This document shows, one piece after another, positions 27,645 through 32,000 of a stretch of DNA of 32,000 nt. The notes below the pieces were generated by a model. It was not told the origin of the DNA. It was given only the letters and a program-made list of their open reading frames with translations, and searched no databases. Origin of the DNA: Chloroflexia bacterium (lineage in GTDB: Bacteria > Chloroflexota > Chloroflexia > Thermomicrobiales > CADCWN01). The position numbers were made by a program, and so were the translations under genes. Location: the NCBI GenBank assembly GCA_046328475.1, contig JAXLWN010000067.1:4263-36262 (forward strand), in the 5' to 3' direction. How positions within the stretch are numbered: the first letter of the stretch is position 1; each line of letters begins with the position of its first letter.

Positions 27645-29072
27645 CTACTCGTCAGATTCCCCCGTACGCTCGCGATAGAACTCCTCAACCGCGCGGATCA
27701 GGCTCGTCGATCCGGCCCCGGCCGCTTCGCAGACCTCCAGTGCGTCGCCGCGCGCGTCGAAACCCGAGCGCGCGGCCTGGAGCGCGTAGAAGACTTCGTG
27801 GCTCTCCTGGTCCGGAACGTGGATGACCAGATCGACCGGGACAGTACCATTTGCCTTTTGGAGCGACACCCGCTGGCGCATGAGCGCGCCGTCGAACCGC
27901 TCATCGAACGGCTCAACCTCGCGCCGACCATCCTTTGGCAAGCCGTAGTCGCGTGCCAGCACGTCGAAGGCTCGCCTCCTGGTCGCGGCGGTGCCGCCGA
28001 TGAGGCAGATCGTTTGGTCGCGCAAGTCGATGCCGGGTTCGGGCAGGGCGACCGCCCTGCCCTGGGCCACGTCCGGGATCAGCGCCCGCAAGCGTTCGGG
28101 ATCGAGGCTGTCCAGCAGCAGCACAGCCTGGCGCAGGTGGCGCGGCGACTGCCGCCGCAGCTCCTGGTGCAAGAATTCGGCGCAGACACCGGCGGCGCGT
28201 TCCCGCACGGGTGCGGAGGCCATTTCGAACTGTTCGAGCAGGGCCAGCCGATCGCCATCGTCGCGACAAAGACGCAGGCAGTCGTCGAAGTAGTGGCCGA
28301 GCAGTGGCGCAAACTCGTCGGCACGCGCGTGGAACCGAGCAGCGCGGATCGCCAGCGCGGGGAGCTCATCTTCGGGCGCACCTTCCGGGGCGAGGTCGAG
28401 CGTCCAGCGCGCCAGTTCGCACACCCTGGCGGTTGGGCGTTGGCGGTCCACCGCGCCGAGATAGCGGCACATGACCTGGTAGGCCCGCTCGATCGCCTGC
28501 GGTAGCTCGGACTGATAGAGGCGTTCGGATAGCTGCACGGCAAGGCCATCGTCCTGCGGATTGGCGCGGGCGATGGCGTCGAATACCACGATCGCCTCCT
28601 CGTCCGACAGCCTGGCGATACCGTCTGCGTGCAGCCGACGCGCGATCGGGAGGTCGTCGGGATCGGCGCGCAGGATCGCCAGCAGATTCGGGCGCGCTGC
28701 GTCGCGAAGATTGGCATCTCCCGTGTCCCAACGCCCAAGCGCCACGGCCCGGACGATTTCCGGCCGCGCGAGGATTTCCGGCGCTTCGCCCGCGACACGG
28801 TCGGCGATCGCCGCCGCCGCCGCGTAGTCTTCGCCTCGGGCGAGCGCGACGAGCAGGCGCTCGAAGAGTCGGCGGCGATCGGCGGGAGCGAGCGCATCAC
28901 CCGCTTCGTCCAGCAGTCGATGGTCGAGGGCAGCGCTCTCGGCATCGCGCCCTAATCCTGCCAGCGCCTCGGCTCGCAGGTAGTCGAGCTGGATCCTCTC
29001 GGCGTGCTGAACCTCCGGCGGCAGCAATCGAGTTGCCGCAAGGCGTCGTAGCGCCGGGCAACAGCTCATCAC
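27645..29072 (-). CDS. Hypothetical protein (475 aa): helical/TPR-like N-terminal two-thirds, C-terminal DUF2325-like domain (tentative)
   Basis: Intact ORF. Its start (GTGATG) overlaps the upstream gene's TGA. The C-terminus ICLIGGTAATRRRAFDVLARDYG...VDLVIHVPDQESHEVFYALQAA...STSLIRAVEEF resembles the (V/I)xxxGG...D(L/V)V...SH pattern of DUF2325. This is a memory-based match only. Confidence 0.5.
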   Translation of the reverse strand: MMSCCPALRRLAATRLLPPEVQHAERIQLDYLRAEALAGLGRDAESAALDHRLLDEAGDALAPADRRRLFERLLVALARGEDYAAAAAIADRVAGEAPEILARPEIVRAVALGRWDTGDANLRDAARPNLLAILRADPDDLPIARRLHADGIARLSDEEAIVVFDAIARANPQDDGLAVQLSERLYQSELPQAIERAYQVMCRYLGAVDRQRPTARVCELARWTLDLAPEGAPEDELPALAIRAARFHARADEFAPLLGHYFDDCLRLCRDDGDRLALLEQFEMASAPVRERAAGVCAEFLHQELRRQSPRHLRQAVLLLDSLDPERLRALIPDVAQGRAVALPEPGIDLRDQTICLIGGTAATRRRAFDVLARDYGLPKDGRREVEPFDERFDGALMRQRVSLQKANGTVPVDLVIHVPDQESHEVFYALQAARSGFDARGDALEVCEAAGAGSTSLIRAVEEFYRERTGESDE

Positions 29073-30178
29073 GCACCGAATCGAGGGCGAGCGAGGGGAT
29101 CGCCACTGCGACGGGCGGGAGCAACCGGGGCCGTGAGGAGCGCGCGGCGCTCCTGAAGCTGGGCCAGTTCGTCCGGCTCCACGAAGGGGAGCAGCGCGTC
29201 GATGAGCGACACGAGCGACTCGGCGGTTCCCTGGGGCGGATCCTGCGCGATCTGGAGCAAACCTGCGGTGACCAGCTGATCCTTGAGGCGAACCCGCCGG
29301 CGTTGCTCGTCGGCGGATCCGAGCGACAGGGCATCCGGCTGGAGCAGGCGCGTGAGTGCGCGCAGCCCCTCCACGCGCCGCCCTTGCGCCCAGTAGCCAC
29401 GCGCGAGCAATTCCAACCGCGCGACATCCTGCGCCGTCGCCGCCAACGCGGGCGGTTCGTCGCCAAGCAAGGCGACCGCCTCATCCGGGTTGCCGAGGGC
29501 GAGCAATGCCTCGGCGAGTTGGAACGCGCTCTCGGCATCGGCGAGGGCGGCGGCATACTCTCGCGCGAGCGCGATTGCGTCCTCCCAATGGCGTTGCGCC
29601 ACGGCGAGTCGCAGCAGGAATGGTGCGAGCGCAGCGGGAGCGATTTCCTCGCGCTGATAGGTTGCCAGGAGCCGCTGCGCGCCGCGAAAGTCGCCGCTGC
29701 TGATCCGCTGCGTCAGGAGGTTGGCATCGAACGCCATCCTGCGCTCGGCCCGCCGCTGCGGGGGATAGGCGCTGAATACCTGGGCCACATCGCGCTGCCA
29801 GGCCTGGATGTCGGCGCGCCACACGGGAATGCCTTGAGGCGCGGGGAGACCACCCTGCCGGGTTGGCACGGGCGACGCGGATGACGCGGGCGGCGCAGGC
29901 GAGGCGGCTGGCCGCAGCTCGTCCAGTTCCTGCCGGACGATCGCCAGAATGTGGTCGCGGTCGGCGGGTGTGGCGGGGCCGCGCCCGATGACGTCGAGGT
30001 AGTTCCCATAGCGATACGACCGTCCGTTGTGCCACGGGTTCGTGAAATGTCCACCCGAGATGCCCGCCGCCCGCAGGGCGCGACGTATTCGCTGCAAGTC
30101 GCCGAAGTCGACATCCAGGCAGAGGACCGCCTTGCCCCGGGAGTACCGCACGTCCGGCGCAGCCTGGTGTGAACTCAC
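29069..30178 (-). CDS. Hypothetical protein (369 aa): small N-terminal domain, Pro/Ala linker, TPR-like helical repeats
   Basis: Intact ORF. The GTG at 30178 follows ggtggaggg. The Ala/Leu-rich repeat region (RLAVAQRHWEDAIALAREYAAALADAESAFQLAEALLALGNPDEAVALL...) is TPR-like. Confidence 0.5.
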   Translation of the reverse strand: MSSHQAAPDVRYSRGKAVLCLDVDFGDLQRIRRALRAAGISGGHFTNPWHNGRSYRYGNYLDVIGRGPATPADRDHILAIVRQELDELRPAASPAPPASSASPVPTRQGGLPAPQGIPVWRADIQAWQRDVAQVFSAYPPQRRAERRMAFDANLLTQRISSGDFRGAQRLLATYQREEIAPAALAPFLLRLAVAQRHWEDAIALAREYAAALADAESAFQLAEALLALGNPDEAVALLGDEPPALAATAQDVARLELLARGYWAQGRRVEGLRALTRLLQPDALSLGSADEQRRRVRLKDQLVTAGLLQIAQDPPQGTAESLVSLIDALLPFVEPDELAQLQERRALLTAPVAPARRSGDPLARPRFGA

Positions 30179-30182
30179 GCGC

Positions 30183-30455
30183 TCATCCCTCCACCCCGGT
30201 CAACTCGGGGGCATCGATCGGTCGCGCGCCCGGTGCGTCGGGTGCGAAGAGTTGCTCGATGCTGGCGCGCAGCTCGGTCAGGCGCTGGGGATCGGTCACC
30301 AGCGCCAGCGTCCCATCGGGCGCGATTTCCAGCGCCGCGCCCGCGCCGAGATAGACCGCCGTCGCGGGCGGCGCGTCGAGCAGCCGCGCGTCGAAGCGAT
30401 CGCCGTGGGCGGCGCGCAGCGCCTGTAGCTCAGCCAACTGCTCCGGTGTGACCAT
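30183..30455 (-). CDS. Small (90 aa) hypothetical protein
   Basis: ORF MVTPEQLAELQALRAAHGDRFDARLL... sits between the helicase and the TPR-like gene. It is co-oriented with short gaps. No family recognised. Confidence 0.4.
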   Translation of the reverse strand: MVTPEQLAELQALRAAHGDRFDARLLDAPPATAVYLGAGAALEIAPDGTLALVTDPQRLTELRASIEQLFAPDAPGARPIDAPELTGVEG

Positions 30456-30476
30456 CTCCGGCCCGGCGGCGAGCCG

Positions 30477-32000
30477 CTACGGGTCGCCCCAGTCGCCCCA
30501 GCGCCGTGGCCAGGTCGTGCAGCGTGTAGGGCTGCAACGGCCGGGGCTGCGGCTGATCGGCAGGCGAGTTGCGGCACCCGCTCCGCGCCATACCCCTCGT
30601 CGCGCTCGTCGTCGCAGCCCACGGGGCCACCGAATGCCGCCCCGGCGACGAGCAGCGGCCCACGCTCGCCGAATCGCGCCAGGATCAGCTCGCGCACGAC
30701 GAAGAATTCCCAGCGCGCGGCATCCCGGCGACGGGTCAGCGGATCTGCCCCTTGCGCCCCTGCCCGCACCCGGATCGGCTCGTCCCAGGGCTCCAGTTCG
30801 AGTTCATACTGTGGCCCCTCCCCATCGAGCGCGACCGTGACCATCCGCGAGGCGACCGGCCGGACCTGCCGATCCATCAAGGAGAGCAGCAGCTGGCCGA
30901 GGAGGGGTGCCTGCGCCGGGCGATAGCGGATCCGCGCGCGGCGCTGTTGATCGAGCGACCGCAGGGCCGCGTTGCGGGCCAGGGTCGGGCGCGGATAATC
31001 GTCCAGCGAGACGATCGCCTCGCCGAGGGCGTCGCGGAGATAGGCGCGCAGCAGCAGGCGACTGAGCAGCAGCGGGCTGCGCCGTGGATCGAGCAGCGAG
31101 CAACTCGAGTCCTGCAAGCACTGGATACAGACATCGCCGCAACTGGCAAGCAGACGCTGGGCGATCTGCCTGCCGAGTGTGCCAACCGCGCCCGTGGCCG
31201 TATCGTCGTCGTCGGCATCGTCATCGGGACCGGCGTATCCGCTGTTTTCGGCCTGGCGCGCCGGCACCGCCCGGCGTGCCGTGGCACCGTGGTCGCGAAG
31301 GATCGTCCGGTAGAGGCGCTGGAGGGGTGTCGGATCGCCCCCGCCGTCGCCTGCGGCATCGACTTCCGACTCAACCTGCCGGGCGATAGCATAGCGCGCC
31401 TCGGTCAGCGTCGGCTCGCGGCCAAGTTCGTGCGCCAGCGCCTCCCAGCGGATCACGTTGATCTCCTTATAGAGCTGCCAGGAGGAGATTTCGCCGCCCG
31501 CCTTGAGCGCGATCGGCTCGGCGAAGAGGCGGGTCAGGAAGCGGAAATGCGCCTCGGTCAGCACGAAGCCGTGGCGCTCGCGGAAAGCGTCGGTGAGCTC
31601 GCGGATCAACTGATCGGCATCCGCACCGTCGAAGTTGAATGTCGCCTCGCGGATACGCCGGGCCAGTTCCGCCAATTCATCGTCCGGCAAGCGGAGCAAG
31701 GCCCGCCCGAACTGCTCGGCGGCGTGGACCTCGCACTCGGTTGCCTGCCGTTCGAAGACACGCCAGAAGAGTTGCGGTCGATCGCGGAACTCGCGCTGCA
31801 CAGCGTGCATGATCCCGATCCCGCCCGTGCCGAGTTCGTAGACGGTGATGCGCCCCGTCGCCGAGCCGACGTCCATGCGCAAATCGACCCAGCTCGCGAG
31901 CCGCGAGAGGGTTTCCACGCCGCCCACGCTCTCGCAGGTCTGCTTGAGGGCGTGTTCGAGGCTGTGGACGAACAGATCGTCGAGATAGTCGTCGAACCGG
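30477..32000 (-). pseudogene. C-terminal part of a helicase-associated DUF1998 (MrfA-type Zn/Cys-cluster) protein; 5' end outside window, about two frameshifts near the 3' end
   Basis: The reading frame is open to the window edge (…FVHSLEHALKQTCESVGGVETL...). VYELGTGGIGIM and the four-Cys cluster LASCGDVCIQCLQDSSCSLLD (31091-31150) match the DUF1998 C-x2-C-x2-C...C pattern. The last ~60 codons of track ORF 30296..31927 look out of frame. A better ending (PADQPQPRPLQPYTLHDLATALG..DWGDP*) stops at 30477-30479. Confidence 0.6.

Follow-up and report, generated by a model that had tools for sequence, protein, structure and literature searches.

What does the gene block at positions 27645 to 32000 do, on the minus strand of a Chloroflexia bacterium contig (JAXLWN010000067.1, assembly GCA_046328475.1)? 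The window, by which we mean the whole 32,000-nucleotide (nt) stretch of this contig that was analyzed (contig positions 4263-36262), ends inside a helicase gene, and the helicase is followed by open reading frames (ORFs) of 90, 369 and 475 amino acids (aa). An earlier note made from the letters alone, the original prediction, had suggested that this set was the restriction/effector arm of a defence island or an independent defence system. We find the first of these suggestions to be the best reading because the helicase is DpdJ-like, the block is convergent to a module that contains TGT-ArcS and DpdH-like genes, and its relatives occur in Dpd clusters. More precisely, the block would serve as the restriction (effector) arm of a 7-deazaguanine island of a non-canonical Dpd type, placed at the front of a minus-strand operon, and we put the probability of this at about 0.62. 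The family relationships, the gene order with its conservation, and the artefactual split of one gene were established by computation, as set out below.

Our reading of the region is based on a comparison of the window with a sister assembly. The same locus is present in the NCBI metagenome-assembled genome (MAG) GCA_046328415.1 (Thermomicrobiales), on the 48-kb contig JAXLWR010000064.1, with an identity of 99.4-99.9%. The source MAG of the window is 83.7% complete and consists of 325 contigs; its guanine-cytosine (GC) content is ∼67% across the window, and the contig ends 3.3 kb past the window edge, still within the helicase gene. Between the two assemblies we counted 37 gap openings in 14.4 kb. 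Frame-breaking indels were found in both, often at short homopolymers and mostly at differing sites. A practical warning follows from these indel errors, namely that the ORF boundaries in this MAG are unreliable.

We first consider the helicase. In the window, its ORF runs from 32000 to 30296, and the last ∼90 residues are Arg-rich junk; compared with the sister assembly, 2 nt are missing at 30561, and from there the ORF runs out of frame to its end at 30296. The reading frame, which had been seen to be open to the window edge, does run on to the contig end, and in the sister assembly it encodes a protein of 2073 aa whose stop lies at the equivalent of 30430 and which overlaps the start of the next ORF by 8 to 26 nt. 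The top match of this protein was the PADLOC DpdJ model (E 1.8e-152; profile positions 111-841 of 1487 covered), and NCBIfam DpdJ (NF041067) matched with E 7.7e-160 and 534 bits, which is below the 800-bit equivalog cut-off. The DrmA, BrxH and DruE models of PADLOC matched far more weakly than DpdJ (DrmA E 2e-15). Residues 2-288, numbered in the sister assembly, correspond to the C-terminal half of RecJ, with DHHA1 and RecJ_OB domains identified by Pfam and a TIGR00644 match at E 1.5e-33. This RecJ-like part is followed by the helicase core (Pfam DEAD E 6e-16, Helicase_C E 2e-5), for which a PDB sequence search returned Lhr (5V9X, E 8.9e-16) and MrfA (6ZNP, E 1.5e-8). The DpdJ matches support placing the predicted protein in the defence branch that holds DpdJ and DrmA. 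A separate housekeeping RecJ is encoded elsewhere in the genome. Upstream of the annotated helicase start, beyond both the window and its contig (locus L004, 1930-2430), we also observed RecJ similarity that includes the VITDHHAP (DHH) motif. This upstream stretch is interrupted by a stop near 2245 and by an out-of-frame piece, and its Pfam DHH match is weak; the true helicase may be a protein of ∼2300 aa that carries a nearly complete RecJ nuclease.

The four-Cys cluster on which the original prediction had built its domain call is indeed there. Its sequence, SCGDVCIQCLQDSSC, could be placed at 31100-31144 on the minus strand. When six helicases of the clade were aligned, three of the Cys residues were invariant; the relatives carry either CxCxCxxC, or CxDxCxxC with a further Cys six residues on, the latter as in the window protein. 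These alternative arrangements involve a compensating shift of one Cys, and therefore four close Cys residues are kept in all six homologues. The DUF1998 site of MrfA is described as a short coil that holds four cysteines close together (PMC7797055), a description with which the window cluster agrees. No profile recovered the domain: Pfam PF09369 (MZB/DUF1998) gave no match to the helicase at E≤5, hhalign of the Cys-cluster region against the MZB-bearing DruE gave no match (E 0.34), and a PDB profile search with the region returned no MZB chain. An AlphaFold2 model of the region, built from a five-sequence alignment, had a predicted local distance difference test (pLDDT) score of 56, with the relevant parts below 50. 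We therefore keep the label as "DUF1998-type", which is assigned by signature and family membership and not by profile. Motifs upstream of the cluster (H-x2-x-H-A-L-K ... Y-E-x-G-x-G-G-x-G) are ones we take to be DUF1998-like, as a lead only. Both helicases on the Viridilinea mediisalina contig NQWI01000059.1 (L127/L130/L131) retain a CxxxCxxC-type cluster as well.

Downstream of the helicase, the ORFs are as tightly packed as had been described: 4 nt separate the 90-aa and 369-aa ORFs, and the GTGA overlap of the 369-aa and 475-aa ORFs is present at 29069-29072. The two larger ORFs also proved Ala/Leu-rich (∼30% Ala+Leu in each), and both have coding-type GC (0.48-0.53 at codon position 2 and 0.79-0.84 at position 3). 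Where three downstream proteins had been proposed, however, we count probably two, since assembly errors have most likely split a single gene of ∼845 aa into the 369-aa and 475-aa ORFs. A word-based homologue search with the 475-aa ORF found only its twin in the sister assembly, the 369-aa ORF returned nothing, and a scan of our genome collection with the 475-aa protein was also empty. In a HMMER scan of 1.84 billion representative proteins, the 475-aa ORF had only three relatives (P0028, P0029 and P0030), the contigs of P0028 and P0029 being 1.6 and 2.4 kb long. P0028 is 38% identical to the ORF (E 9e-60). Its start, MLIDALLPLV..., matches LIDALLPFV near the end of the 369-aa ORF, such that the C-terminal 44 residues of this ORF are collinear with the P0028 N-terminus, and the alignment then continues collinearly into the 475-aa ORF. 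A single gene is thus supported in two ways: P0028 reads across the junction without a change of frame, and the bases at which the frame is broken are not the same in the two assemblies. Compared with its sister, the window has an extra C at 29095, lacks a C at 29059 and another at 29026, and misses a codon at 29041; the sister assembly has one break at the junction, a missing T at 29120. Joining the intact stretches from each assembly yielded a single 845-aa ORF. Furthermore, an hhalign comparison of the 845-aa protein and its relatives with the DpdD of Viridilinea runs through the junction unbroken.

What this protein is could be approached through profile-profile comparison with its three metagenomic relatives. 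The C-terminal domain aligned to a family of ∼750-aa TPR-DUF2325 proteins with a probability of 91.7% (hhalign E 7.8e-7, 161 columns), and weaker collinear matches to the same family were found at the N-terminus (E 0.014) and in the middle region. The 845-aa protein shares the architecture of this family as well as its operon position after the helicase, and the 369-aa portion has weak Pfam TPR matches (E 1e-3). The DUF2325-like C-terminus of the original prediction thus stands by a two-step link and not by a direct one: Pfam PF10087 (DUF2325) does not match the 475-aa ORF at E≤5, and the C-termini of the TPR-DUF2325 family match PF10087 below threshold in five of five members tested (E 2e-4 to 0.24). 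One member of the family is labelled a DUF2325 protein in UniRef. An AlphaFold2 model of one TPR-DUF2325 partner (pLDDT 82.6) comprises a small alpha/beta domain (residues 1-77), a TPR-like solenoid (residues 175-637) and then a Rossmann-like alpha/beta domain (residues 659-771); a fold search with this model found generic TPR proteins only (OGT, SPY, APC/C). By homology, the 845-aa protein would accordingly begin with a small domain, continue as a TPR-like solenoid and end in a DUF2325-like alpha/beta domain.

A second link leads to DpdD. The 845-aa family aligned to Viridilinea DpdD over 195 columns (157-386 versus 168-363, E 1.3e-4, from shallow alignments), and the C-terminal domain alone, again with a shallow alignment, matched DpdD at E 2.9e-6 and shares with it the motif G-S-T-S-(L/I)-(I/L)-R-A-(V/I)-E. 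The two proteins are 845 and 770 aa in size, their matching segments are collinear, and both stand in the same position after the helicase. When the DpdD hidden Markov model (HMM) was run against 401 genomes of the phylum there were no matches, and the control genomes likewise gave none. We call the protein DpdD-like, as a distant relative, and not a member of the DpdD family. The earlier statement that none of the small or mid-size proteins matched anything nameable is hence superseded for the large protein, which the hhalign searches relate distantly to DpdD and to the TPR-DUF2325 partners.

To return to the question of conservation, we examined eight loci carrying relatives of the helicase (G015, Nostoc L040, Roseiflexus L041, Chloroflexi OHK40 L120, L122, Viridilinea L127, L128 and L129). 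In all eight, a clade helicase of 1613-1656 aa that lacks a RecJ domain precedes a DpdK-like PLD protein, after which comes a TPR-DUF2325 protein. The PLD proteins are 156-178 aa long and match NCBIfam DpdK at E 6e-24 to 2e-24 (79-86 bits, cut-off 100) and PADLOC DpdK at E 1.6e-23; the helical-repeat TPR-DUF2325 partners are 728-776 aa long. In two of these loci, L041 and L128, a UvrD-like gene also follows the partner protein. The clade helicases sit either in full Dpd restriction clusters or beside Druantia-like genes. For instance, the Viridilinea contig reads J' (1645 aa), K' (PLD), TPR-DUF2325, DpdE-like, DpdF-like, DpdG, DpdH-like, a 230-aa protein, J (1533 aa), K (167 aa) and DpdD (770 aa, PF28109). 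From this order on the L127 contig, the cassette is a paralogue of the J-K-D block. Of the two Viridilinea helicases, J' is the closer match to the window helicase (559 bits over 1510 residues, against 277 bits for J). On the metagenomic P0029 contig, the relative of the 475-aa protein adjoins a convergent TGT+DUF5591 gene. In other genomes, then, the helicase and TPR/DUF2325 genes recur together with a PLD gene; no relatives of the 90-aa ORF were detectable. A search of ∼300 genomes of the class, three of the same genus among them, did not recover the 475-aa protein, and this rarity fits a mobile accessory island.

The 90-aa ORF occupies the slot in which the relatives carry their PLD gene. 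Its codon-position GC of 0.81/0.53/0.84 is a strong coding pattern, and the NCBI MAG calls it as an 84-aa gene. We found no homologue of it and no Pfam, PADLOC or NCBIfam match. The PLD nuclease that the original prediction had wondered about is thus present in the relatives, at each of the eight loci, and was not found here. Two candidates for a decayed DpdK PLD were considered and dropped. The 90-aa ORF resembles one by eye, with an hhalign E of 0.04, which leaves it unsupported and a weak possibility only; the extra ∼115-aa tail of the helicase gave nothing in hhalign. Likewise, hmmsearch with a five-member PLD profile and with NCBIfam DpdK detected nothing in the 90-aa ORF or the helicase tail, and the HxK motif occurs in no frame.

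The surroundings of the block tie it to a DNA modification module. On the convergent plus strand, the window encodes YhhQ, a TGT-like gene (PF01702, E 1e-11), an ArcS-like gene (NF040592, E 4e-21), a 260-aa ORF of no known family and a DpdH-like ATPase (NF041065, E 1e-19), such that the helicase is genomically linked to a 7-deazaguanine module within the window. No DNA methyltransferase was found among the window ORFs scanned. Downstream in the minus-strand operon are two further genes (Table 1). The AddB-like gene is split by an in-frame TAG at 25337-25339, present in both assemblies, into a 743/783-aa ORF and a 170-aa ORF; these C-terminal 170 aa carry the PD-(D/E)XK motif. The UvrD-like gene is frameshifted in both assemblies, which differ there by several indels.

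Table 1. Positions of the helicase block, its subfeatures and the adjoining operon genes in the window.
Feature	Position	Strand	Basis
C-terminal third of the DpdJ-like, YprA-family superfamily 2 (SF2) helicase	30430..32000	-	PADLOC, NCBIfam, Pfam and PDB sequence matches; end from sister assembly
False out-of-frame helicase tail	30296..30561	-	Sister assembly has an extra TC; tail Arg-rich; GC frame plot switches frame
Four-Cys cluster C-x3-C-x2-C-x5-C, presumed Zn site of a DUF1998/MZB-type module	31100..31144	-	Signature kept in relatives
84-90-aa ORF, in the slot of the DpdK-like PLD of relatives	30183..30455	-	Codon-position GC; NCBI gene call
N-terminal part (369-aa ORF) of the putative ∼845-aa DpdD-like helical-repeat protein	29069..30178	-	Weak TPR matches; collinearity with P0028
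Indel cluster at the 369-aa/475-aa junction	29026..29120	-	Comparison of the two assemblies
C-terminal part (475-aa ORF) of the same protein: helical repeats, then alpha/beta domain	27645..29072	-	Relatives by HMMER
DUF2325-like C-terminal domain; GGtAAtRR ... DLV(I/V)HVPdxESH ... GAGSTS(L/I)IRAVE	27663..28037	-	hhalign to the 750-aa TPR-DUF2325 family and DpdD
AddB-like protein, next gene in operon	24821..27568	-	Pfam PDDEXK_1 E 4e-5 (above cut-off); sister-assembly gene calls
UvrD-like helicase, last gene of operon	22528..24810	-	Pfam UvrD-helicase E 4e-38, UvrD_C E 9e-20

Based on these results, we propose a working model in which the minus-strand operon would encode, in this order, the helicase with its RecJ-like fusion, the 84-90-aa ORF, the ∼845-aa DpdD-like protein, the AddB-like protein and the UvrD-like protein. 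The convergent plus-strand operon, with its preQ0 genes, TGT-ArcS fusion and DpdG/H-like genes, would mark the cell's own DNA. By analogy with SftH/MrfA (PMC7797055), the helicase would load on unmarked DNA and move 3′-to-5′, and the DpdD-like protein could serve it as a scaffold or regulator. Degradation of the DNA would then fall to the fused RecJ-like domain and/or the AddB-like nuclease, in place of the lost PLD nuclease, and the whole activity would depend on the deazaguanine mark. A bolder version of this model is a PLD-independent restriction machine in which a RecJ/DpdJ-like fusion, DpdD-like TPR-DUF2325 control and an AddAB-like helicase-nuclease would read an archaeosine-type mark made by TGT-ArcS. 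We offer this version tentatively and with some doubt. If it were true, the helicase-nuclease-partner block would be a portable effector module with a swappable nuclease that could be plugged into Dpd, Druantia-like or other sensor sets.

Several observations weigh against a Dpd-type restriction arm. Besides scoring below the DpdJ cut-off, the helicase matches NF041067 only over positions 61-841 of 1482, the first 57% of the model. NCBIfam DpdD (NF041061) has no match in this genome at E≤1, and neither half of the 845-aa protein matches it at E≤0.01. By plain hmmsearch, the TPR-DUF2325 profile reaches 8 bits only against the window ORFs; both this link and the one to DpdD are suggested by hhalign with shallow alignments, at E 1e-4 to 1e-6. 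There is no PLD nuclease at the locus and no DpdK was found in the 83.7%-complete genome. The cassette also occurs next to Druantia-like genes at loci where no TGT lies within 10 kb, and hence it may not depend on a DNA mark. Lastly, four defects are common to both assemblies, namely the overlap of the helicase and the 90-aa ORF, the TAG that interrupts the AddB-like gene, the breaks in the UvrD gene and the stop within the RecJ DHH region, and the arm could be partly decayed.

The Druantia-like loci lend themselves to the main rival explanation, in which the helicase, the 90-aa ORF and the DpdD-like protein would be a self-contained, DISARM-like cassette that senses structures of invading DNA rather than a missing 7-deazaguanine mark, and that adjoins the modification operon only through the clustering of defence genes in islands. 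At such loci the helicase-PLD-TPR-DUF2325 set lies beside DruC/DruD/DruE-like genes with only housekeeping genes upstream, and the window helicase does score against the DrmA, BrxH and DruE models. We nonetheless regard this explanation as unlikely. The cassette or parts of it are physically linked to TGT-ArcS or to Dpd or Dpd-like genes in the window as well as on the P0029 contig and in Viridilinea/L129, the linked genes in Viridilinea/L129 being DpdE/F-like, DpdG and DpdH-like, with DpdD in addition in Viridilinea; moreover, the best family matches are DpdJ, DpdK and DpdD, not Drm or Dru.

The shared defects, together with the failure to find DpdK anywhere in the genome, are what one would expect of a decaying remnant in which the PLD has been lost, the AddB-like gene stopped and the UvrD and RecJ regions broken, leaving the genes non-functional. 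Yet many of the frame breaks differ between the assemblies and lie at short homopolymers, as is typical of consensus errors, and coding-type GC patterns are intact throughout, which makes decay of the whole set improbable. Still more improbable, in our judgment, is a repair or recombination module, with an MrfA/Lhr-like helicase fused to RecJ and accompanied by an AddAB-like helicase-nuclease, that has no immune role. RecJ-like, AddB-like and UvrD-like domains are classic repair parts, and the closest solved structures are those of the repair helicases Lhr and MrfA. The genome, however, has its separate housekeeping RecJ; the 475-aa protein is an extreme rarity that did not turn up in genomes of the same genus; the scores of the helicase are far higher for DpdJ than for the repair families; and defence genes neighbour it in the relatives. 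A housekeeping MrfA/Lhr orthologue with conserved non-defence neighbours, which the original prediction had named as the outcome that would undo it, is thus not what we found. A Dpd-type restriction arm consequently remains the reading that we prefer.

Comparison with described systems shows how far this arm would depart from them. Dpd was described in Salmonella Montevideo (dpdA-K; NF041067, NF041068, NF041061), where DpdD-K confer the restriction phenotype and their individual roles are not known (PMC10164549). The window resembles Dpd in its YprA-family helicase with DpdJ as best match, in a large partner whose middle region and C-terminal domain are DpdD-like, and in the linkage of the block to a TGT-family transglycosylase, preQ0 genes and DpdG/H-like genes; in its relatives, a DpdK-like PLD lies between helicase and partner. 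It differs in that the helicase is under the equivalog cut-off, its C-terminal half has no DpdJ profile match, it retains the four-Cys cluster lost in canonical DpdJ, and it bears the RecJ-like N-terminal fusion. In addition, the locus is without DpdK, DpdE, DpdF and DpdI, the DpdD HMM misses the partner, AddB-like and UvrD-like genes are appended, and the modification enzyme is a TGT-ArcS fusion, not DpdA/B/C.

Uncharacterised, deeper-branching Dpd-like clades of the YprA family have been reported to retain the Cys cluster (Bell et al. 2025, bioRxiv 10.1101/2025.09.15.676423). The window helicase is similar to these in belonging to the YprA defence branch with a DUF1998-type four-Cys cluster and in that the nuclease varies by locus (PLD, PD-(D/E)XK); the main text of that paper describes no TPR/DUF2325 partner or RecJ fusion for the clade. 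Two systems named in the same work differ from the window system: BRIGADE occurs in haloarchaea only, and TALON pairs a TPR-CSD protein with a NERD nuclease. DISARM (DrmA, DrmB DUF1998, DrmC PLD) likewise combines a helicase with a Zn-cluster module and a nuclease, and the window helicase matches DrmA weakly (E 2e-15). Here, however, the helicase and the Cys-cluster module are one polypeptide with no separate DrmB, and no DNA methyltransferase, DrmD/E or PLD was seen at the locus. As for MrfA/YprA and Lhr (6ZNP, 5V9X), the SF2 core is shared, and four close Cys residues lie in the C-terminal region as in the MZB of MrfA (PMC7797055), whereas the window helicase is more than twice as long, gives no MZB HMM or PDB match and is an accessory gene in a defence context. 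In the literature we found no paper on the TPR/DUF2325 partner or on the RecJ fusion. While the Dpd, DISARM and YprA-family landscape is already published, what is new here is a PLD-less, RecJ-fused version with AddB-like and UvrD-like genes that is tied to a TGT-ArcS enzyme.

The locus bears on the question of how Dpd systems restrict DNA, in which no individual role has been assigned to any of DpdD-K (PMC10164549). The three-gene block of a Zn-cluster helicase, a small nuclease and a DpdD-like TPR/DUF2325 protein recurs in Dpd clusters and beside Druantia-like genes; its presence in both contexts suggests a minimal effector unit, one amenable to testing on its own. The apparent natural swap of a nuclease, from a PLD to a RecJ-like fusion plus an AddB-like nuclease, bears on which component cuts DNA. 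DUF2325, a domain of no known function, gains a concrete setting as well.

Other relatives of the helicase suggest that the nuclease partner is variable, since a DUF4365 or an HNH protein stands after the helicase there. In some, the helicase comes directly after a TGT-ArcS fusion and is followed by a DUF4365 protein (PD-(D/E)XK clan). This arrangement of TGT-ArcS fusion, DpdJ-like helicase, DUF4365 protein and a 381-aa unknown protein was seen at L039 (4748-12461, G111), L038 (G102) and L043 (Pannus brasiliensis); in the L039-type set the helicase is ∼1460 aa long with a classic C..DGCP.C motif, and the DUF4365 protein has 187 aa (Pfam E 2e-13). In the Oscillochloris-type loci L036 (12637-13428, minus strand) and L069, a truncated helicase of ∼1275 aa is followed by a 263-aa HNH protein (IscB-type, E 5e-5) and a 379-aa protein, which replace the PLD and TPR proteins.

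A few further observations concern the loci themselves. At 22528-25404 on the minus strand of the window, the N- and C-terminal pieces of the UvrD-like protein are separated by out-of-frame junk. The densest indel and substitution differences between the two assemblies lie at 19000-20250, inside the DpdH-like ATPase gene, and because of this cluster the gene is seen as two overlapping ORFs in the window. Among the relatives, DruC-like, DruD-like and DruE1-like genes (Druantia type I-like; DruE E 0) come directly after the cassette at L120 (13247-22280), L122 and L128, which are unrelated contigs. Lastly, in G015, a 1287-aa protein with a Dsr2/SIR2-like N-terminus (NCBIfam E 1e-18) and pentapeptide repeats is encoded directly upstream of the DpdJ-like helicase (L035, 7597-11460, minus strand).

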